Source: a virus (lineage: Duplodnaviria > Heunggongvirae > Uroviricota > Caudoviricetes). Taken from it: 7,600 nucleotides of DNA. The stretch is from IMG/VR virus record IMGVR_UViG_2529293138_000010, positions 1 to 7,600 of that record, one strand, 5' to 3'. The position numbers and the translations under genes are program-made. A model generated the notes under the pieces. That model had not been told where the DNA came from. It saw only the letters and a list, made by a program, of their open reading frames with translations, and searched no databases. Below are positions 1-7,600 of this stretch, in pieces (position 1 is the stretch's first letter; each line of letters opens with the position of its first letter).

Positions 1-1242
1 ATGGCGAGAAAAACACCCCCATTAACCACGGTGCAGATCAAAGCAGCCAGACCAGCGGAAAAGGAATACACCCTACAGGACGGCGGAGGGCTTTTTCTCC
101 TGGTCAAGCCGTCTGGATCCAAACTCTGGCGATTTTCCTACTACCGACCATCGGACAAAAAAAGAATATTGCTGAGTTTTGGATCGCTTGATGATGTTTC
201 CCTGGCTGATGCCAGAAAACGCCGTAGCGAGTACAGAGCGTTAATCAGTGCCGGAAGTGACCCGCAGGGCCATGAGAAGAAAAAACGAGAGGCAGAGGCC
301 CGAAGACAAAGGAACACGTTCGAAAATGTGGCGGCGGCATGGTACCAGGTGAAAATCAGCCAGAATCTGGCCCCCAACACTATTAAAGACATCTGGCGAT
401 CGCTGGATAAATATGTATTCCCGTTCATCGGAAACACGCCAGTAGACACCCTCACCGCCCGAAGATTCGTTGAGGTGATGACCCCCATCAAGGAGCGCGG
501 CAACCTGGAAACACTCAAGCGGGTTTTACAGCGCGTTAATGAGGTAATGGATTACGCCGCCAACAGTGGGCTGATTGATACCAATCCGGCTATGAATGTG
601 CGTAAGGCGTTCCCCTCCCCTGTAAAAAAACATATGCCAACAATCCGCCCCGAACAGCTGCCGGAGCTTATGCAGGCTTTATCAGTATCGGCAACAGAAC
701 GGCAGACCAGACTACTTATTGAGTGGCAGCTACTGACCGTAACCCGTCCCGTTGAAGCATCGTCGGCACGCTGGGAAGAAATCGACATAGAGGCGCAACG
801 CTGGACCATACCAGCCGGACGCATGAAGATGCGCCGCGACCACGTTATCCCGCTTTGTGACCAGGCTATGGCAGTGCTGGAGGCTATGAAACCAATCAGC
901 CACCACCGCGATTACGTTTTCCCGAGCCTGAAAGACCCACGGCAGCCGATGAACAGCCAGACCGCTAACGCAGCATTACGGCGCATGGGATTCGCTGGCG
1001 TGCTGGTGTCTCATGGATTACGCGCCATATTCAGCACAGCAGCGAACGAGGAAGGATTCGAGCCGGACGTAATAGAGGCGGCACTTGCCCACGTCGACAC
1101 CAACGAAGTGAGACGGGCATACAACAGGAGCAACTACATAGAAAAACGCGTGGTGCTTATGCGCTGGTGGGGCGAATTTGTCGAGGCTGCGGCGACGGGC
1201 GTAACCCTCGCCAGTGGTAAAAGGGGTATCCGAGCCGTGTAG
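1..1242 (+). CDS. int: Tyrosine-type site-specific integrase (P4/CP4-57-like prophage integrase family)
   Basis: 413-aa ORF from ATG at position 1. C-terminal catalytic signatures HGLRAIFST (box II H-x-x-R) and LAHVDTNEVRRAYNRSNY (His/Tyr nucleophile region) are typical of phage integrases; N-terminus resembles P4-type integrases. Confidence 0.9.
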   Translation: MARKTPPLTTVQIKAARPAEKEYTLQDGGGLFLLVKPSGSKLWRFSYYRPSDKKRILLSFGSLDDVSLADARKRRSEYRALISAGSDPQGHEKKKREAEARRQRNTFENVAAAWYQVKISQNLAPNTIKDIWRSLDKYVFPFIGNTPVDTLTARRFVEVMTPIKERGNLETLKRVLQRVNEVMDYAANSGLIDTNPAMNVRKAFPSPVKKHMPTIRPEQLPELMQALSVSATERQTRLLIEWQLLTVTRPVEASSARWEEIDIEAQRWTIPAGRMKMRRDHVIPLCDQAMAVLEAMKPISHHRDYVFPSLKDPRQPMNSQTANAALRRMGFAGVLVSHGLRAIFSTAANEEGFEPDVIEAALAHVDTNEVRRAYNRSNYIEKRVVLMRWWGEFVEAAATGVTLASGKRGIRAV

Positions 1243-1286
1243 CTGTACAGAAAACCAGTAAAAACTACGAAAATAATGCAAAACCG

Positions 1287-1296
1287 TTGTATAATT
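1287..1296 (+). promoter_or_regulatory. Possible extended -10-like element (TTGTATAATT) upstream of small ORF
   Basis: TATAAT at 1290-1295 preceded by TG at 1288-1289; no convincing -35. Sequence-only prediction. Confidence 0.3.
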
Positions 1297-1331
1297 GCAC
1301 TAAATTTAACGGCGCCAGCGAGGTCATGAGC

Positions 1332-1562
1332 ATGAACACATCACCCGCGACCCATTTCGATGGTTTACAACTGGCCCTGATGGTCCAACATGAATTTTGG
1401 TCAACCTACGATCCAGAGGACAGAGCGACGGCCCCAACAAAAAAAGACGTTGTTGAGTTTCTGGTATCCCGTGGGGCATCCAGGAATATGGCTGAAAGTA
1501 TCGACAGGGTAGTTCGTCCGGCAACCATGAAGACCGGAGGCAGACCAAAAAAATGGCGATAA
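1332..1562 (+). CDS. Hypothetical small protein (76 aa, basic C-terminus GGRPKKWR)
   Basis: ATG at 1332 with GAGG (1320-1323) 8 nt upstream; the ORF-track frame opens at TTG 1287. Followed directly by an intrinsic terminator. No family recognised. Confidence 0.45.
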   Translation: MNTSPATHFDGLQLALMVQHEFWSTYDPEDRATAPTKKDVVEFLVSRGASRNMAESIDRVVRPATMKTGGRPKKWR

Positions 1563-1572
1563 CAATCCTCAA

Positions 1573-1596
1573 AGCGGCAGAAATGCCGCTTTTTTT
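1573..1596 (+). terminator. Rho-independent terminator
   Basis: Stem AGCGGCA (1573-1579), loop GAAA, TGCCGCT (1584-1590), then T-run to 1596. Confidence 0.7.
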
Positions 1597-1625
1597 ATAA
1601 ATCCCTTTCAAATCACCAACATAAA

Positions 1626-1652
1626 AAACGTTTCTAACCGTTTAAAAACGGT
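1626..1652. promoter_or_regulatory. Palindromic elements upstream of alpA (possible operator or recombinase-binding sites)
   Basis: AAACGTTT palindrome (1626-1633) and perfect palindrome ACCGTTT-AA-AAACGGT (1637-1652); direct repeats CACCGGAAT/CACCGGATT at 1695-1713 lie further downstream. Confidence 0.3.
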
Positions 1653-1729
1653 GGGAACTGTTTTTACCAATATCCGATGATTTACCGTATTTCTCACCGG
1701 AATACACCGGATTAATGAGGTAAATCACG

Positions 1730-1936
1730 ATGGAAGCAATCAAAAAAGTCATCTTTCGCCAGGAAGTAAAAAAACTTATCCACATCAAGGCAAACAGCAC
1801 GCTTCAAAGCATGATCAACGCCGGAGAATTTCCGCAGGGTTTTCGCGTTGGTTTACGCCGTCGCGGATGGTATGAGGAAGACGTAATCGCATGGATGAAA
1901 GAACGTGAGCAGGAAGCACGCGAAACGGCTGCGTAA
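1730..1936 (+). CDS. alpA: AlpA-family phage transcriptional regulator / excisionase-like HTH protein
   Basis: 68-aa ORF with GAGG (1717-1720) 9 nt upstream of ATG. Sequence LIHIKANSTLQSMINAGEFPQGFRVGLRRRGWYEEDVIAWM matches the AlpA/Vis HTH pattern (…FP…G…GW.E.E…W). Confidence 0.85.
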   Translation: MEAIKKVIFRQEVKKLIHIKANSTLQSMINAGEFPQGFRVGLRRRGWYEEDVIAWMKEREQEARETAA

Positions 1937-1966
1937 TGGTGTGAGGCATAACACGATGAACATAAC

Positions 1967-1991
1967 AAAAAGCGCCCCGTTACCGGAGCGC
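1967..1991 (-). terminator. Candidate intrinsic terminator for leftward transcription (convergent with alpA)
   Basis: On the minus strand: GCGCTCC / GGTAAC loop / GGGGCGC (7-bp stem with one G-U pair) followed by TTTTT (plus-strand A-run 1967-1971). Confidence 0.4.
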
Positions 1992-2081
1992 CCTTGCGAA
2001 CAATTAACCTGCTGCGAAAAAATTGGATCAGTGCAGGGGAATTATATCAACTGTGTGAAGAAGCGCCACAATTGCCGGATA

Positions 2082-2115
2082 ACAGGCAAAACAAAGGCCA
2101 CCTGCTACGGTGGCC
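2082..2115 (-). terminator. Candidate intrinsic terminator of the leftward small-gene operon
   Basis: Perfect 7-bp stem GGCCACC (2096-2102) / GGTGGCC (2109-2115) with 6-nt loop; on the minus strand it is followed by TTTGTTTTG (2095-2087). Confidence 0.5.
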
Positions 2116-2218
2116 ATTCGACACAAGCTACACGTTATCCCCAACGCATGAGCATAACCAACAATGCCACATTTGCGGCTGGTGGGCAAAGCGTAACCGG
2201 AAAAAAATTCCGGTGGGG

Positions 2219-2344
2219 CTATTCCTGTTCTTTGTCCTTGCGTCGCTGGCGACGTTTGATCTCATGCAGAATTTTTTCAGGTAAGAATCCTGCTGATTTA
2301 TTTTCTGGTAGCAATGGTTTGTTATCCGTCTGCTTCCTGGTCAT
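2219..2344 (-). CDS. Hypothetical 41-aa peptide (MTRKQTDNKPLLPENKSAGFLPEKILHEIKRRQRRKDKEQE), basic C-terminus
   Basis: Not in the ORF track (below its length cut-off); found by manual reverse-complement translation. ATG at 2344 lies 3 nt after the stop of the upstream 60-aa ORF (TGAtgtATG), with an AAAGG SD-like motif 7 nt upstream; same frame as the two upstream minus ORFs. A CCGGAA/TTCCGG hairpin follows the stop. Confidence 0.3.
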   Translation of the reverse strand: MTRKQTDNKPLLPENKSAGFLPEKILHEIKRRQRRKDKEQE

Positions 2345-2347
2345 ACA

Positions 2348-2530
2348 TCAACCTTTTGGTTCGTTACGTTTCCATACCTGCAATGGGCGCGTTTTCCTGT
2401 ACTCTTTTAGGAATATCTCAAGAGCAAACGCACACGGTGCGAATCTTTCTGATTCATGCTCGAGCGCCATATTTTCGTGCTCTCTTTTCGTTTTTTGCGA
2501 TGGTGTATTGGTTGATTCTTTGTTGGTCAT
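2348..2530 (-). CDS. Hypothetical 60-aa protein
   Basis: Minus-strand ORF starting 58 nt downstream of the RHH-like gene, with AGGAA 7 nt upstream of ATG. No family recognised. Confidence 0.35.
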   Translation of the reverse strand: MTNKESTNTPSQKTKREHENMALEHESERFAPCAFALEIFLKEYRKTRPLQVWKRNEPKG

Positions 2531-2587
2531 TGTGTGTTCCTGTAAAGCAATGCGCCGGAGTTCCTCACACCACGGCGCTGATAGTGA

Positions 2588-2893
2588 TTATTCTGATTCT
2601 TTGGCCTTGCGGCGCTGGAGTTCTTCACGCGCGACGGTGACGAGTTGCCCGATCTCCTCGGCTGCTTTGACACCGATTTTTTCCACCTGCGCCAGTGCAT
2701 CGAGCGAAGAAACCAGGGGATTTTCTCCGCTTCCTTCTGCCTGGCGGCGGGCGATTTCACCGCGAACGGCTGTAATCACGAAAGCGGCTATTGTTTCCCC
2801 TTCCGTTTTCGAATTTTCCATTTCCTCGATTACATCATGGGGGAAGCGGATATTTTTCATTTGCGATCTGCTGTTGATGTTTCCTGTTGCCAT
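2588..2893 (-). CDS. Putative ribbon-helix-helix (Arc/MetJ/CopG-like) DNA-binding regulator; candidate island repressor
   Basis: 101-aa ORF diverging from the palindrome-rich intergenic region. N-terminal KNIRFPHDVIEEMENSKTEGETIAAFVITAV fits a beta-strand/helix/helix RHH pattern; acidic/basic helical C-terminus. True start may be the internal MKNIRF. Confidence 0.55.
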   Translation of the reverse strand: MATGNINSRSQMKNIRFPHDVIEEMENSKTEGETIAAFVITAVRGEIARRQAEGSGENPLVSSLDALAQVEKIGVKAAEEIGQLVTVAREELQRRKAKESE

Positions 2894-2910
2894 CAGAATG
2901 TCCGGTTATT

Positions 2911-3018
2911 TTGAGGTGTGTACACATTACACCAAAAGGTGTGTTGATAAAACACTTGACACTGTAGCACACTTAAATCTAATCTGTATATACACCAATT
3001 ATTGTAGTGTATATACAG
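2911..3018. promoter_or_regulatory. Divergent control region with multiple operators
   Basis: Palindrome TGTGTACACA (2917-2926); inverted repeat ACACC-AAAA-GGTGT (2929-2942); repeated ACAC/GTGT motifs; perfect 12-bp inverted repeat CTGTATATACAC (2984-2995) / GTGTATATACAG (3007-3018) separated by 11 bp. Confidence 0.55.
2956..2985 (+). promoter_or_regulatory. Predicted sigma70 promoter for the rightward (replication) operon
   Basis: Consensus -35 TTGACA (2956-2961), 18-bp spacer, -10 TAATCT (2980-2985). The 12-bp inverted repeat begins at the 3' edge of the -10 and would cover the start site. Confidence 0.45.
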
Positions 3019-3252
3019 CAACGCCCCGCAGTGGTGGTACACATGCAGGGCGTCTAACCACCAACGATAACGAGAGTATCGAGGTAGCTATGAGAAATCA
3101 TACCACACACCCGCAAGGGCGGGACTCGCACAACCTGAATAAAGCGGGTATGAAAAACCTGTTGATCGCCACTGCCAGCCAGGGCTATGATTCATGTGCA
3201 CCTCATAAAACGGGTGCCGGGATTACCACCCCGCTGATGTCCAGGGCGATAC

Positions 3253-3275
3253 AGACGCCGCACGCGTCTTTTTTT
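3253..3275 (+). terminator. Intrinsic terminator / attenuator inside the rightward leader
   Basis: Stem AGACGC (3253-3258), loop CGCAC, GCGTCT (3264-3269), followed by a T7 run (3269-3275); about 280 nt downstream of the predicted promoter and 165 nt upstream of the first strong RBS. Confidence 0.55.
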
Positions 3276-3440
3276 GTATCGGCGCACACGCACACCTTAA
3301 CAATGGTGGGCTGTACGGGGCCGACTTCGGTCTGGCTGGTCACCTTGGACGCCAGTTGTGGTAACCCTGTACAGTCCACCGCCAGCGAGATTACCACCTC
3401 CGGCGGTGGGGATATCCCAACGTCTAAGGAGGCTGCCAAC

Positions 3441-3632
3441 ATGGCTACTACCCCTACCCTTATACATTCTCAAACTGCCTTTATCTGGCGCTTTATTGCC
3501 TTTGGCGCGTCAGAATCCCAAATCATCAACGTAACCGCCTGGACAGAACGCGAAGCGCGTAACCATTGCCCGTCAGGTTGTGTCGCTGTATTTGCCGCCC
3601 GTATTCGTCAGGGGAAAACCTATGCACAATAA
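3441..3632 (+). CDS. Small protein (63 aa), possibly Icd-like (tentative, from memory of similar islands)
   Basis: Strong SD AAGGAGG (3426-3432) 8 nt upstream of ATG 3441. Sequence MATTPTLIHSQTAFIWRFIAFG…TAWTEREARNHCPSGCVAVFAARI. The frame is open upstream to 3090, so a longer form cannot be excluded. Confidence 0.5.
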   Translation: MATTPTLIHSQTAFIWRFIAFGASESQIINVTAWTEREARNHCPSGCVAVFAARIRQGKTYAQ

Positions 3633-4086
3633 AACCACACCGGACGCAGCAGCTGCCGAGCTCACTACGCTGATGCACGCGCTGATTGATATTTCTGTTA
3701 TTGCTGACAGGGCGCATAAGCACGCCACCAGTGAAACAGAATATGCATGGGCTTTCGTTCCTCATTCGCTGGCGGTTATGCAACTTAGTGCGGATATGGC
3801 GCTGAATGAGGCCAAAGCCATCCTGATTGCTGATTGTGAAAATGGGGGGGTTATGCGTGATGATCGTTTTAATTCCCTGAAACAGGAATTTTCCGGCGTA
3901 TCTGATGATGCGGCTGATGCGCTTTCGTCAATGCCAGAACTTATTAGAGCGGCTTTTTTCTTACTTTCCACGAAAGAATATAAATCAACGGGACTTGATG
4001 TACTGAATATCGCCGCCGATTATGCGGAATATGTGGCAGAGGCGCGTTACAGAAGAAAATTTCCTGAGGATGTAAGCCATGCGTGA
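3622..4086 (+). CDS. Hypothetical protein (154 aa)
   Basis: ATG 3622 with GGGGA 6 nt upstream, overlapping the previous stop by 11 nt; the ORF-track frame opens at 3580. No family recognised. Confidence 0.55.
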   Translation: MHNKTTPDAAAAELTTLMHALIDISVIADRAHKHATSETEYAWAFVPHSLAVMQLSADMALNEAKAILIADCENGGVMRDDRFNSLKQEFSGVSDDAADALSSMPELIRAAFFLLSTKEYKSTGLDVLNIAADYAEYVAEARYRRKFPEDVSHA

Positions 4087-4312
4087 TATTTACATTGAAA
4101 CAATAGACCGCGCATTTAGTGCCCTTGCTTACGCTGAAGGTATGTACGAAATATTGCAAATGTGGCTGGAAACATTTGACGATAATGAGCGTGATGTAAA
4201 GAAGGCGCGGATTATTAAATCACTGATAACTCTCCTTGAACATGTAATAACAGAGTTGCAGGAAATAGACTTATTGCACGACAGATATAACGAACAGCAC
4301 ACCGGAGAATAA
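4079..4312 (+). CDS. Hypothetical protein (77 aa, acidic)
   Basis: ATG overlaps the upstream stop (ATGCGTGA at 4079-4086), suggesting translational coupling. Confidence 0.55.
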   Translation: MRDIYIETIDRAFSALAYAEGMYEILQMWLETFDDNERDVKKARIIKSLITLLEHVITELQEIDLLHDRYNEQHTGE

Positions 4313-4317
4313 AAATA

Positions 4318-4605
4318 ATGAAACTTAAATATTCTGGCTTAACTGCCAGCGGCACCGCTCGGCCTGAAATCCGTAACGGCGATATTTACCGCGATAAATA
4401 TGGCGGCATGGTAACGATTAAAGGCGTGGCAGAACGGCGCATCACCTACCGCCGTGAAGGTTACGAATATGATTGCGTGATGCCTGTTTATCAATTCCGG
4501 CGTGATTTCACGCTGGTAGGCCAGCGTAAAGCCGTTAATCAGAAACGTGCAACAGGTTATATCCGCAAAATCCGTGAAATGCTGGTCGCAGGGGGTAAGA
4601 AATGA
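4318..4605 (+). CDS. Hypothetical small basic protein (95 aa), possibly DUF4222-like
   Basis: GGAG (4304-4307) upstream of ATG 4318; its stop overlaps the next start (ATGA at 4602-4605). Motifs YRDKYGGMVTIKGV…ITYRREGYEYDCVMP. Family assignment is from memory only. Confidence 0.55.
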   Translation: MKLKYSGLTASGTARPEIRNGDIYRDKYGGMVTIKGVAERRITYRREGYEYDCVMPVYQFRRDFTLVGQRKAVNQKRATGYIRKIREMLVAGGKK

Positions 4606-5999
4606 AACTGGCACCGAACGTAAAACGATTACCGAAAGATAAATACACCGATGCGATTATTTTTGCGGGTATTGATGCTCACTCATTCGCAGAGCATTAC
4701 ATCATTGCACAGGCCAAAAAAGCAGGCGATCCAGTCCCTCCCGTTTATCTGGGGCGTTATCAGTTAAGCGAACTGGATAACCTCCAGATTGTTGATGATG
4801 GGCGATACAGGGCGACGGTGATACGCGCCGGAAATATTGAAGAGCCGCAGCTGTTAACCATCGCCACGAAACTGGCGATCGCCGGAGTCCAGGAGGCGCG
4901 GCTACTTTCTGAAAATTTCGAATTGCTGGAGGAATGGAGCGACCAGCTTCCACGGCTTAGGGAGACATGGGAACGCGGGGAAAGCCTGAGCAACCAGCGA
5001 AAAACCACGCTACCAATGAGCGTGGGATCTGCCGGATACGACACACAACTTGATTACGTGGTTAAGGGAATTATTCCGGCTGTATCGCTTTGCAGCATAT
5101 ACGGGGCGAGCGGTTCCTATAAATCATTCCTTGCCGGATCGTGGGCGTGTCACGTTTCCACTGGCCGCCAGTGGGGATGCCGCAGGGTGGCGCATGGCGC
5201 TGTTCTCTATGTGGTTGGTGAAGGCGGTATCGGCGTTCCTCGTCGTGTAAAAGCCTGGGAGGTTGTGCACGGTGAGCAGGTGAAAAATCTGTATCTGGTA
5301 AACCGTCCCATCTTTCCGGCTGCCCCGCTTGATGTTGATGAAATGGTTATCGCTGCCCGTCAGGTGGAACGGGAAACGGGTAAACCTGTACGCATGATTA
5401 TTCTGGATACGCTGGCGCGGTGCTTTGGTGGCAATGATGAAAATGATTCCCGTGATATGGGGGCGTTTATCCGTGGGTGTGACGAACTGAAACGACGCAC
5501 AGGGGCCACGGTGCTGGTGGTTCACCATTCCGGCAAGGATGAAACAAAGGGAGCGCGTGGTTCCAGTGCATTTCGTGCTTCGCTGGATGCTGAATACCGG
5601 ATACGCAGGGAGGACGCAGGAAGCGAAGCCCTGGTTATCTCATGCACCAAAATGAAGGATGCGGAGGAACTCAAAGAAGCCGCATATGACTTACGCGTGG
5701 TGGAGCTTTTTACCGACGCTGACGGGGAGTTAATCACGTCGCTGGTGGTGGTGGATAAGCCGCGCCCTCCCGTTGAACTGGAGCGCATCGAGGAGGCTGG
5801 CAACAAGACGGAAAACCATACCGCGCTATGGGGATGCATACGTTCACGCACACAGAACGGAGACAAGTGCACGATCCCGCTGTTACGTGATGACATGAAA
5901 AAACTGGGGTACGAAATGAAAAACTTCCGGCGCTGGCTGTACAAGCTGGAAAAAGACAGGGTTATTCGTATCGATGGGGATGATGTAGCGCCGCTATAA
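4602..5999 (+). CDS. Replication-associated P-loop ATPase (RecA-fold, RepA/DnaB-like AAA_25-type helicase)
   Basis: 465-aa ORF with Walker A-like YGASGSYKSF, Walker B-like VRMIILDTLAR and downstream VLVVHHSGKD, typical of RecA-fold replicative helicases; iteron-like repeats lie immediately 3'. Confidence 0.8.
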   Translation: MKLAPNVKRLPKDKYTDAIIFAGIDAHSFAEHYIIAQAKKAGDPVPPVYLGRYQLSELDNLQIVDDGRYRATVIRAGNIEEPQLLTIATKLAIAGVQEARLLSENFELLEEWSDQLPRLRETWERGESLSNQRKTTLPMSVGSAGYDTQLDYVVKGIIPAVSLCSIYGASGSYKSFLAGSWACHVSTGRQWGCRRVAHGAVLYVVGEGGIGVPRRVKAWEVVHGEQVKNLYLVNRPIFPAAPLDVDEMVIAARQVERETGKPVRMIILDTLARCFGGNDENDSRDMGAFIRGCDELKRRTGATVLVVHHSGKDETKGARGSSAFRASLDAEYRIRREDAGSEALVISCTKMKDAEELKEAAYDLRVVELFTDADGELITSLVVVDKPRPPVELERIEEAGNKTENHTALWGCIRSRTQNGDKCTIPLLRDDMKKLGYEMKNFRRWLYKLEKDRVIRIDGDDVAPL

Positions 6000-6188
6000 A
6001 GTGAGGTGCAAAAGCGAGGGGTATAGAAGGAGGGCCAAAATTAGACCGCTACCCCTCACTTTTCGGCCTGTATACATCCTCAAAAGTGAGGGGCAAAAAA
6101 ATACTTATGAAACACACACATAGAAAAAGCGAAAATCTCAAGCGAGACGGAGCCAGACACTTTAAAAAGTGAGGCGAAAAAGTGAGAG
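5998..6188. repeat. Iteron-like repeat array (candidate origin of replication)
   Basis: AAAGTGAG(G) copies at 5998-6006, 6083-6093, 6166-6174 and 6179-6186; inverted copy at 6052-6062; variants AAAGCGAGGG at 6011-6020 and 6141-6150 region. The inverted pair CCCCTCACTTTT (6052-6063) / AAAAGTGAGGGG (6082-6093) can form a 12-bp stem. Confidence 0.5.
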
Positions 6189-6198
6189 TTTGCGAGAA

Positions 6199-6450
6199 AT
6201 GAACAAAATGCGTAGAGACAGAACAGAGCCAAAATATAAAGCGTTAGACATGACAGAGCACGCTTTAAAGGTGGCAATCAGAACGATAGACCGCCACGCG
6301 GGGGAAGGATACGCGAAGGAACATCCCGACCTGATAAGCGCATTCATGACCACAGCAGCGGCAAACTTTGCCACGCTGACAGAACGGGAGATTGCCGAAG
6401 CGGAACAGGTAACAACCATCAACGTTAAAACCGGAGAGCAGACAGCATGA
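6199..6450 (+). CDS. Hypothetical protein (83 aa)
   Basis: ORF-track frame 6169..6450 opens at a GTG inside the repeat array; first ATG is at 6199. Its stop overlaps the ssb start (ATGA at 6447-6450). Start is uncertain. Confidence 0.45.
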   Translation: MNKMRRDRTEPKYKALDMTEHALKVAIRTIDRHAGEGYAKEHPDLISAFMTTAAANFATLTEREIAEAEQVTTINVKTGEQTA

Positions 6451-6869
6451 CAGCACAGATAGCGGCTTACGGACGGCTGGTGGCTGACCCGCAGTTAAAG
6501 ACCACCAGCAAGGGTACACAAATGACGATGGCGAGTATGGCGGTCCCCCTTCCGTGCAGCCAGGCAGATGACGGAGCGGCGACGATGTGGTTATCCGTCA
6601 TGGCGTTTGGCAGACAGGCCGACGCACTGGCAAAACACCACAAAGGCGAACTGGTGAGCGTGGCGGGTAACATGCAGGTAAGCCAGTGGACAGGCCAGAA
6701 CGGCGAAACGCGGCAGGGCTGGCAGGTTATCGCAGACAGCGTAATCAGTGCGAGAACGGCGCGACCTGGCGGCAAAAAAGGCCAGCAGGGGCAGGCTACT
6801 GACGCACTGAACAGGGCAAAACAACAGGCTGGTAACGATGATCCGTATGGGGATAACATACCGTTTTAA
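6447..6869 (+). CDS. ssb: Single-stranded DNA-binding protein (SSB, OB-fold)
   Basis: Aligns by eye with E. coli SSB: GRLVADPQL…, MWLSVMAFGRQADALAKHHKGELVSVAGNMQVSQWTGQNGETRQGWQVIADSV (W/FG/KG/W-x-D-x-G-x-R pattern). Gly/Gln-rich linker and C-terminal tail DDPYGDNIPF ending in IPF. GGAGAG SD 8 nt upstream. Confidence 0.8.
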   Translation: MTAQIAAYGRLVADPQLKTTSKGTQMTMASMAVPLPCSQADDGAATMWLSVMAFGRQADALAKHHKGELVSVAGNMQVSQWTGQNGETRQGWQVIADSVISARTARPGGKKGQQGQATDALNRAKQQAGNDDPYGDNIPF

Positions 6870-6883
6870 GCAACGAGTAACAG

Positions 6884-6907
6884 AAGCCGGAGAAGTCCGG
6901 CTTTTTT
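6884..6907 (+). terminator. Rho-independent terminator ending the replication operon
   Basis: Stem GCCGGA (6886-6891), loop GAAG, TCCGGC (6896-6901), followed by T6 (6902-6907). Confidence 0.75.
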
Positions 6908-6917
6908 ATGCCCCAAA

Positions 6918-6953
6918 AAGCCCGATAAGGTCAGAGGGTCTTATCGGGCTTTT
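6918..6953. terminator. Second hairpin, possible bidirectional terminator
   Basis: 12-bp perfect stem AAGCCCGATAAG (6918-6929) / CTTATCGGGCTT (6940-6951) with 10-nt loop; A-run upstream, T-run downstream. Confidence 0.5.
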
Positions 6954-7031
6954 GCATATGAGGTTTTTTTGGTGCGCTGACACACATGATCGGGATAATA
7001 ATTTCATAATTTGCAACATAACTCAATATTA

Positions 7032-7059
7032 TTGCACAAAATGCAATCCTGATTATAAT
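7032..7059 (+). promoter_or_regulatory. Predicted promoter of the capsid module
   Basis: -35 TTGCAC (7032-7037), 16-bp spacer, consensus -10 TATAAT (7054-7059), in an AT-rich region with repeated TTGCA motifs (7011, 7032, 7042). Confidence 0.45.
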
Positions 7060-7064
7060 CATGA

Positions 7065-7080
7065 CTGGATGAACATCCAG
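7065..7080. promoter_or_regulatory. Perfect inverted repeat CTGGATG-AA-CATCCAG over the predicted start site (candidate operator)
   Basis: 7-bp arms separated by 2 bp, beginning 6 bp after the -10. Confidence 0.3.
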
Positions 7081-7115
7081 TTATGATTTTTTAAGTCGAA
7101 GAGGAATTTCTTACT

Positions 7116-7322
7116 ATGGCTGAAGAGAAAAAAGGCGGTGTTTCGGTGTACATAAGCTCCGACATCGTGGAGGCGCTCAAGGAACGCCACCAGCAGAACG
7201 TAAAAGCAGGCATTGCGGCAGGACTTGATCCGCTGGCGATGGTTGAGCCGTCAACAGGCTGGCAGGTGCGCGCCTATTTACGTGCGGCGCTGGGCATGAA
7301 TCAGACTCATGGGGGTGAATAA
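7116..7322 (+). CDS. Hypothetical small protein (68 aa), first gene of the capsid module
   Basis: GAGGAA SD (7101-7106) 9 nt upstream of ATG; its stop overlaps the capsid gene start (TAATG). No family recognised. Confidence 0.6.
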   Translation: MAEEKKGGVSVYISSDIVEALKERHQQNVKAGIAAGLDPLAMVEPSTGWQVRAYLRAALGMNQTHGGE

Positions 7323-7600
7323 TGGCAGGCAAAGCAACGGCACTTACCACTAATCAGCTTTTCACGTACATGAATCGCGGGGATATTGCGGAATTTAAAT
7401 TCAGTCCGCTGTTTACCACGCTGTTTTTCACGAACGTGGCGACATTCAGCACCCAAAACATCATGCTGGATACCCTGGACATTGAAGAAGTCACTATGTC
7501 GGCGTTTTGTTCTCCTATGGTTGGCAGCCAGGTACAGCGCGATAAAGGGTACGAAACCAGCACAATCAAACCTGGCTACATGAAGCCAAAGCACGAAATC
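7322..7600 (+). CDS. Major capsid protein, lambda gpE-like family (N-terminal 93 codons; truncated by window end)
   Basis: Manual translation MAGKATALTTNQLFTYMNRGDIAEFKFSPLFTTLFFTNVATF…KPGYMKPKHEI matches the lambda gpE N-terminus (…EQKFKFDPLFLRLFF… …PGYVKPKHEV) as recalled from memory. Confidence 0.8.
   Translation, partial: MAGKATALTTNQLFTYMNRGDIAEFKFSPLFTTLFFTNVATFSTQNIMLDTLDIEEVTMSAFCSPMVGSQVQRDKGYETSTIKPGYMKPKHEI

Follow-up and report, generated by a model that had tools for sequence, protein, structure and literature searches.

A probable P4-type RNA immunity switch in front of the replication operon of a phage-inducible chromosomal island

The DNA analysed here is a window of 7,600 nucleotides (positions 1 to 7,600 of the IMG/VR virus record IMGVR_UViG_2529293138_000010, Caudoviricetes), which represents the left-hand portion of a phage-inducible chromosomal island (PICI). 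Within this window, positions 2956-3632 very probably constitute an RNA immunity switch of the P4 type that controls the early, or replication, operon of the island. I describe the parts of this switch, their homology to P4, the covarying pairings between them, the promoter hexamers and the reading frame in which the RNAs are nested; the region has every sequence-level feature of P4 immunity that was tested. The switch is of a long-known type, and C4 and isrK RNAs in such islands have already been published. The mechanism has been known since the 1990s, and the parts of P4 immunity are PLE, seqA, t1, cI or the CI RNA, seqC, kil nested in eta, and timm, with PLL upstream.

Results

The whole 7.6-kb window was scanned against all Rfam families, the covariance-model score of each match being compared with the gathering score, and two neighbouring matches exceed it over the full length of their models. 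The isrK family (RF01394) is found at 3198-3274 with 65 bits against a cut-off of 50 bits (E = 1.5e-12, model positions 1-77 of 77, terminator included), and the C4 family (RF01695) at 3299-3386 with 69.6 bits against 45 bits (E = 2.1e-12, model positions 1-87 of 87). For comparison, the P4 immunity region was fetched and scanned with the same RNA families, and in it isrK (60.8 bits) and C4 (74.9 bits) follow one another ahead of kil in the same order as in the window. The isrK RNA is the equivalent of P4 seqA, and C4 that of the P4 CI RNA (PMC3632133; discussed in PMC4825925). An earlier reading of the window from its letters alone (the sequence-only reading) had likened the leader in front of the gene at 3441 to P4-type immunity or to leader-encoded small RNAs, and these two matches, their order and the covarying antisense pairings described below bear it out.

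The isrK-family RNA (3198-3276, plus strand) consists of a first hairpin, a second hairpin with segment a1 (3223-3229) in its loop, segment b1 (3238-3246) and an intrinsic terminator. The latter has a GC-rich stem of 6 bp (AGACGC/GCGTCT, 3253-3269) followed by seven T (3270-3276); the sequence-only reading had already pointed to this hairpin and T-run, which turn out to be the 3' end of the isrK match. It is the counterpart of P4 t1 and is among the 5 terminator-like sites found in 2400-3900, where 1.8 are expected. An anti-terminator pairing of GGCG (3245-3248) with CGCC (3256-3259), which would compete with the terminator, is seen in some predicted folds; I set it aside, as its columns never vary compensatorily, so that the count is uninformative either way.

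Conservation of the pairings was followed in 16 distinct aligned cassettes, those of the window, of IMG/VR islands found via their Icd-like protein, of P4, of a Stx2 phage, of a P1-like phage and of a Rha-type prophage, with 500 shuffles and with slid controls. The C4-family antisense RNA (3299-3386, plus strand) is built of an outer stem of 17 bp with two hairpins inside it, its internal helices are 98.8-100% paired across the alleles with compensatory changes, and a CCA (3382-3384) stands directly after the stem in 16/16 cassettes. Segment b' (3343-3351) is the loop of the second hairpin, and a' (3358-3364) is a single-stranded joint. In the window, a' is complementary to a1 in isrK and to a2 (3391-3397), and b' to b1 and to b2 (3421-3429), where a2 and b2 belong to a downstream target (3391-3432, plus strand) equivalent to P4 seqC. 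As in P4, this target overlaps the ribosome-binding site of the first Kil/Icd-family gene, b2 running into its Shine-Dalgarno sequence AAGGAGG (3426-3432), and in a duplex scan of 2900-3700 the best partner of b' lies at 3420.

These complementarities are kept by covariation. The a'-a2 pairing is conserved at 100% with compensatory changes in 6/7 pairs, the b'-b2 pairing at 94.4% with 7/9, and the a1-a' (99.1%) and b1-b' (93.8%) pairings have compensatory changes in 14 of their 16 pairs, so that the two-segment complementarity of P4 immunity is present with compensatory changes in 27/32 pairs overall. For four of five measures, none of the 500 shuffles reaches the observed value in either of two covariation tests, and the slid controls give 31-50% pairing. 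Cognate combinations of C4 and target form on average 15.5 of 16 pairs, compared with 10.3 for non-cognate ones.

Two further structures involve the same segments. An alternative hairpin (3376-3383/3402-3409), kept at 93.8% with compensatory changes in 5/8 pairs, draws on the 3' strand of the C4 stem, and a2 would be exposed in its loop. The read-through RNA from 3198 to 3445 folds far better than shuffles (z = -3.88), with a1/b1 predicted to pair with a'/b' in cis.

The 16 cassettes hold 8 a' and 9 b' alleles in 12 combinations, and the a and b segments therefore reassort independently. The window's b allele (CCTTGGACG / CGTCTAAGG) is shared with a P1-like phage, the a allele of which differs. 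The exact a/b allele of the window is carried by only one IMG/VR island contig; no phage with it was found, and over the cassette the identity to complete E. coli genomes does not go beyond 92%. This rarity is what one might expect of a decayed, non-functional remnant of an immunity cassette. However, all elements of the window are intact and cognate (16/16 pairs of a'/b' with a2/b2 form; the two G-U wobbles of the allele are in b'-b1 and in b'-b2, one each), both RNA models are matched at full length and the nested frame is open, and I consider decay very unlikely.

Sharing of alleles between elements is also observed. The islands L002 and L005 and the Stx2-converting phage F039 (locus L083, 1500-1742) have identical a and b segments, with 16/16 cross pairs, and their antisense RNAs should therefore cross-react. 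A quick survey for genomes in which an island and a prophage have the same alleles gave nothing obvious (median one place per genome). Some relatives have a second C4 RNA just 3' of the icd-like gene (L005 3221-3425, L012 3220-3308, L013 3263-3351, L021 3220-3424 and L048 2995-3082); it is preceded by a c4-a1b1 motif in L005 and L021, and L048 has it even though no cassette lies upstream of its icd-like gene. The window has no second C4 RNA, and its occurrence in the relatives suggests a second tier of RNA control.

An internal sigma-70 promoter-like site, overlooked in the sequence-only reading, is located at 3162-3191 on the plus strand (TTGATC-N18-TATGAT) and ends 6 nt before the 5' end of isrK. 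It is one of only 3 sigma-70-like sites in the 7.6 kb, which is fewer than chance. Its -10 hexamer is identical in all alleles shown, its -35 hexamer differs (TTGCTC) only in a few IMG/VR relatives and its spacer sequence is variable, while P4 has TTGCCT...TATAGT in the same geometry. The sequence-level evidence is thus strong that this site would be the counterpart of PLE, the internal constitutive promoter of P4, with a predicted transcription start at about 3198. As the promoter sits at the 5' end of isrK, the short RNA is most likely a primary transcript of about 77 nt, instead of the product of about 280 nt from the upstream promoter that the sequence-only reading had expected.

The internal promoter also bears on a simpler account, in which the region is a plain cis attenuator, that is, one long leader from the upstream promoter with a constitutive partial terminator and no RNA acting in trans. 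A terminator within a transcribed leader is indeed present, but the conserved promoter exactly at the isrK 5' end and the complete C4 RNA, with its processing-type stem and CCA, speak against such an attenuator, in which the three-way covariation of C4 with two target sites has no role either. I regard it as highly improbable.

The RNAs of the proposed switch are embedded in protein-coding sequence. The first strongly signalled gene, Icd/Kil-like and 63 aa long (3441-3632, plus strand), has its AAGGAGG and its ATG (3441) where the sequence-only reading had placed them. It matches NCBIfam NF033153 ('host cell division inhibitor Icd-like') with 60.2 bits against a cut-off of 25 bits, and the same family is matched by P4 Kil (76.1 bits) and by Icd of the P1-like phage. 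It is contained, in frame, in an eta-like open reading frame of 180 aa (3090-3632, plus strand; GAGG at 3081-3084, ATG at 3090), which reads through isrK, C4 and the target sites into it and matches Pfam Phage_ASH with 42.6 bits against a cut-off of 26 bits; P4 Eta belongs to the same family (82.4 bits). As judged from the sequence, kil is nested in the eta-like gene, as in P4, where kil likewise forms the 3' end of a longer frame whose start lies before the internal promoter.

Conservation of the eta-like frame was counted in 31 distinct relatives, 30 of which have it intact, with an in-frame ATG, a ribosome-binding site and zero stops; the sole exception has a 1-nt deletion. The other frames of the relatives contain 3-11 stops, and 4-6 are expected from shuffles. 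The distance from the eta-like ATG to kil varies between relatives (348, 351, 363, 369, 402, 423 or 426 nt) and is in each case a multiple of three. The sequence-only reading had offered an upstream-extended protein as an alternative to RNA-based control and had taken a 180-aa product as evidence against the latter. That was the wrong yardstick; both the P4-type RNA and the extended protein are supported, because the two apply together, as in P4. The stop-free stretch from 3090 to 3632 on which that alternative was founded is actually open from 1905 (1905-3632, 575 codons on the plus strand), running antisense through the leftward genes at 2219-2893 and then through the eta-like gene; upstream of 2894, the open frame probably results from the codon usage of the opposite-strand genes.

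It could still be argued that the region is just the 5' part of a 180-aa coding gene, the RNA matches and hairpins being by-products of conserved coding, as the frame is open and conserved, matches Phage_ASH and is of the kind that annotation names 'ash family protein'. However, coding constraint does not predict the compensatory changes found in 30/60 of all tested pairs, which include long-range pairings of segments 30-130 nt apart. The covariance-model scores lie well above curated thresholds, the frame encloses a canonical terminator and a conserved promoter, and in P4 both the RNA and the protein are real (PMC10111431). A purely coding role is hardly credible in the face of these observations.

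The Phage_ASH family and the PGAP labels 'ash family protein' and 'Icd-like protein (pseudo)' cover the translated promoter-isrK-C4-target region (3195-3440 in the window), as is seen in the public annotation of L001 (4928-5470) and L085 (3842-4363), and the old P4 annotation 'cI gene product, transcriptional repressor' (8168-8584) still feeds PHROG names. Much of the conservation of the Phage_ASH protein family may reflect RNA constraints.

The position of the cassette relative to icd-like genes is variable. In many relatives without a cassette, the conserved leader hairpin described below abuts the icd-like ribosome-binding site directly, and in L001, L010, L037 and L014-L023 the eta-like frame opens, upstream of the cassette, with a partial or near-complete extra Icd-like domain (for example ...QTAFVWRFLAL... 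and ...RFIALS...ITIEATSEQEAR...). The cassette and kil therefore seem to be a module that was recombined into pre-existing icd-like genes at different points.

Upstream of the cassette lies a second promoter-like site (2956-2985, plus strand), with a -35 hexamer TTGACA at 2956-2961, an 18-nt spacer and a -10 hexamer TAATCT at 2980-2985. The sequence-only reading had predicted this promoter, and one half of it stands well: the -35 is perfect, and as TTGAC(A/G) it is kept together with its position in about 50 related loci, beside repeats that are specific to each island. The -10, which matches the consensus at 3/6 bases, is weak, and a consensus scan does not call the site. Inverted and direct repeats surround it (2914-3018), namely a perfect 12-bp inverted repeat (CTGTATATACAC / GTGTATATACAG) at 2984-2995 and 3007-3018, which spans the expected transcription start, and direct repeats (AGGTGTGT...) at 2914-2932 and 2937-2955. 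Related islands have different repeats at the same positions. Such operator-like repeats would be the pattern expected of a repressor-controlled early promoter, and the site is presumed to be a regulated early promoter, putatively in the role of P4 PLL; the 101-aa YlcI/YnfO-family protein encoded next to it is only a candidate for binding the repeats.

The leader that would follow this promoter contains a hairpin module (3022-3062, plus strand), formed by a hairpin at 3022-3052 and the invariant UCUAACCA. The hairpin, which the sequence-only reading had noted as GC-rich, is real in that it is kept in 19 sequence variants of related islands, with compensatory changes in 2/8 pairs, and together with UCUAACCA it is a 5'-UTR module in front of the icd-like genes of the island family, with or without the RNA cassette. 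It has no match to an Rfam family. The module is preceded by an A-rich run, and some islands have two copies of it (L007 at 1825 and 2611, L015 at 1851 and 2597, L021 at 1896 and 2597, L046 at 2209 and 2946). The second GC-rich hairpin of the sequence-only reading, CCCGC-AAGG-GCGGG at 3110-3123, fares less well: it forms in the predicted fold, but no evidence was found that it matters, and the leader from 2992 to 3197, considered as a structured RNA, folds no better than shuffles (z = -1.12) and has no Rfam match at E up to 1. The duplex scan also gave a potential third C4 target at 3049-3064 (GGCGUCUAACCACC, -17.9 kcal/mol), which I rejected because the motif is invariant with other b alleles and in islands without C4, and shows no covariation.

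The genes around the switch follow the order integrase, AlpA-like gene, leftward genes, cassette, orf154, orf77, DUF4222 gene, RepA-like helicase gene, iterons, SSB gene and start of a capsid E gene. The integrase gene occupies 1-1242, and the AlpA-like gene lies at 1730-1936 (PHROG excisionase, E = 2e-7; its Pfam match is below the cut-off). The gene for the YlcI/YnfO-family protein (2588-2893, minus strand) is divergent from the cassette. The controlled operon (3622-5999, plus strand) contains orf154, orf77, the DUF4222 gene (87.9 bits) and the RepA-like helicase gene (AAA_25, 144.9 bits in a profile match), for which the annotation in an E. coli relative reads 'helicase RepA family protein'. 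The first 11 nt of orf154 are shared with the 3' end of the kil/icd-like gene. The capsid E gene starts at 7322. The layout is the same in E. coli relatives (L001, L085), and the best match among complete E. coli islands has 88% identity across 83% of the window. Structure searches with the YlcI/YnfO-like and Icd-like proteins gave no useful match.

By this layout, the window belongs to a Gram-negative PICI with its own capsid gene: integrase, alpA, regulatory zone, replication genes and a late zone with capsid, within about 10-15 kb, were the features used, and the full element extends beyond the window. The hallmark genes of P4 (alpha primase, epsilon, sid/psu/delta) are absent from the window, which has instead the AAA_25 RepA-like helicase, DUF4222, SSB and a capsid-E-type gene, the same set as the E. 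coli relative. The element itself is not a P4, though its immunity would work like that of P4.

Just 3' of the helicase gene, AAAGTGAGG occurs as four direct copies and once inverted as CCTCACTTT, with a spacing of about 83-85 bp (5998-6194); these repeats are probably the iterons of the island's replication origin. Strong terminator-like hairpins at 2096-2115 and 1968-1995 on the minus strand close the leftward operon, the former with a weak, sub-threshold match to isrD, and another at 1571-1592 on the plus strand closes a small plus-strand open reading frame (1287-1562).

Discussion

What these parts do, how the RNAs are processed, whether Rho takes part and what signal induces the island, I infer from the comparison with P4. 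In the quiescent state the internal promoter would fire, and most transcripts would end at the terminator (3253-3276) as an IsrK/seqA-like RNA of about 77 nt. Read-through would carry the C4/CI-like RNA, which would then be excised, its tRNA-like stem and CCA suggesting RNase P; Forti et al. in 1995 and Hartmann et al. in 1995 are said to have shown maturation of the antisense RNA by RNase P and 3' trimming. Segments a' and b' of C4 would pair with a2 and b2 and mask the Shine-Dalgarno sequence of kil, which would remain untranslated. The untranslated C-rich RNA could permit premature termination and keep the replication genes off: no other stretch of the window is as rich in C and as poor in G as 3420-3540 in the 5' part of kil, which is a possible Rho loading site when untranslated. 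In P4, Rho-dependent termination (timm or t4) occurs downstream of the target when kil is untranslated. Pairing of C4 with a1/b1 in isrK may moreover feed back on the use of the terminator and hence on the supply of C4, as Briani et al. in 2000 reportedly described for C4-type pairing with a1/b1 and the P4 terminator t1.

Upon induction, the operator-laden upstream promoter would open. Its transcripts would contain the ATG at 3090, and ribosomes starting there would read the 180-aa eta-like frame across the terminator, C4 and the targets; by this translation, such transcripts would become insensitive to the RNA repressor and reach the replication genes.

Some observations weigh against this interpretation. 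The -10 of the upstream promoter is poor, as noted above with the failure of the consensus scan to call the site, and the argument for Rho dependence is one of base composition. The AlpA-like gene is not beside the eta-like gene, and the route of induction may differ from that in P4. Least certain in the scheme is the sign of the a1/b1 interaction, because the short IsrK RNA activates translation in Gifsy-1 (PMC4825925), and the net sign may vary between elements.

The likeness to P4 is nevertheless extensive. In both, the promoter (a promoter-like site in the window) is followed by an isrK segment with terminator, by a C4 RNA and by a target that covers the ribosome-binding site in front of an Icd/Kil gene of about 63-65 aa, both have two-segment complementarity of the antisense RNA, and the context of the kil ribosome-binding site and start is nearly identical (GGAGGCTGCCA.CATGGCTAC). 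In both, Kil lies within a Phage_ASH-family frame of about 180-199 aa that begins upstream of the internal promoter, and a replication operon follows downstream. The specificity sequences differ (a' is GTGGTAA in the window and TTCTCAC in P4), and the gap between terminator and C4 is 24 nt in the window and 107 nt in P4. In the window, the eta-like gene follows a divergent operator region and is provided with a ribosome-binding site of its own, whereas P4 eta is coupled to an alpA/vis homologue. Downstream of the switch, the window has DUF4222 and RepA-like helicase genes where P4 has epsilon and alpha primase, and the island has a capsid gene and, in the window, no sid, psu or delta.

A second system with such an RNA is the immI region of P1 and P7 (c4, icd, ant), the c4 mechanism of which was reportedly worked out by Citron and Schuster in 1990 and Biere et al. 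in 1992. It has a C4-family RNA that is processed from the transcript it controls and a b segment that masks the ribosome-binding site of an Icd-family gene, as is predicted for the window. It differs in its a allele and in its antirepressor gene: no ant antirepressor is found downstream of icd in the window, where the downstream open reading frames match only PHROGs of unknown function and replication proteins, and the nested frame and upstream promoter of the window are P4-like.

The third is the isrK-STnc1160/orf45-anrP region of Gifsy-1 in Salmonella, where an isrK-family RNA is transcribed from its own promoter up to a leaky terminator, read-through transcripts are processed to a stable downstream RNA, and the middle of IsrK pairs with a downstream segment, the predicted fold of the window matching its inactive 'structure A' (PMC4825925). 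In its position, the ATG at 3303 in the window matches the first orf45 start (A107 of the IsrK transcript; PMC4825925, Table 1), but its frame does not end and continues into kil. Gifsy-1 has an antirepressor as cargo, and its short RNA has been demonstrated to be a translational activator (PMC4825925), whereas the cargo of the window is a set of replication genes.

Accordingly, the island's cassette might work as in Gifsy-1 and P1, gating the translation of a small toxic Icd/Kil-like protein and of coupled genes, with IsrK as an activator or decoy in trans that frees the ribosome-binding site, and with termination not being the controlled step. In Stx phages the same isrK-C4 cassette precedes Rha/antirepressor genes and in the P1-like phage it precedes icd, the predicted cis fold of a1/b1 with a'/b' resembles 'structure A', and the overlap of orf154 with kil makes translational coupling possible. 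However, the downstream cargo is a replication operon as in P4 and not an antirepressor, and the nested eta-like frame and the upstream promoter are features of P4. I consider this mode of action possible but rather unlikely, and it is not exclusive of the P4-type switch.

For the PICIs themselves, Mageeney and co-workers in 2023 described 'Bro zone' immunity RNAs of Gram-negative PICIs and helper-embedded PICIs, islands with the same integrase, alpA, Bro/Phage_ASH gene, replication genes and late zone with capsid E; they reported that Bro-network genes of these islands contain matches to the Rfam families C4 and isrK, inferred immunity from them and summarised the nested-gene model of P4 kil and eta (PMC10111431). 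The covariation per site, the allele series, the internal promoter and the conservation of the frame come from the present analysis.

The reading of the region as a P4-type switch gives a testable account of how the island silences its replication genes and how it could escape that silencing. It also makes plain that current genome annotation misreads the locus, as an 'ash family protein' or a pseudo 'Icd-like protein' is drawn over RNA genes that are nested in a real frame. A more speculative idea, to which I give little probability, is that the cassette serves as an RNA-level sensor of the helper phage, in that the IsrK-type decoy RNA of an allele-matched phage would soak up the island's C4 and turn replication on; in the reverse direction, the C4 RNA of the island could silence a phage antirepressor. 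The natural series of covarying a and b alleles is ready material for deriving the specificity rules of antisense pairing, and it equally suits tests of cross-talk among satellites, Stx phages and P1-like plasmid prophages.

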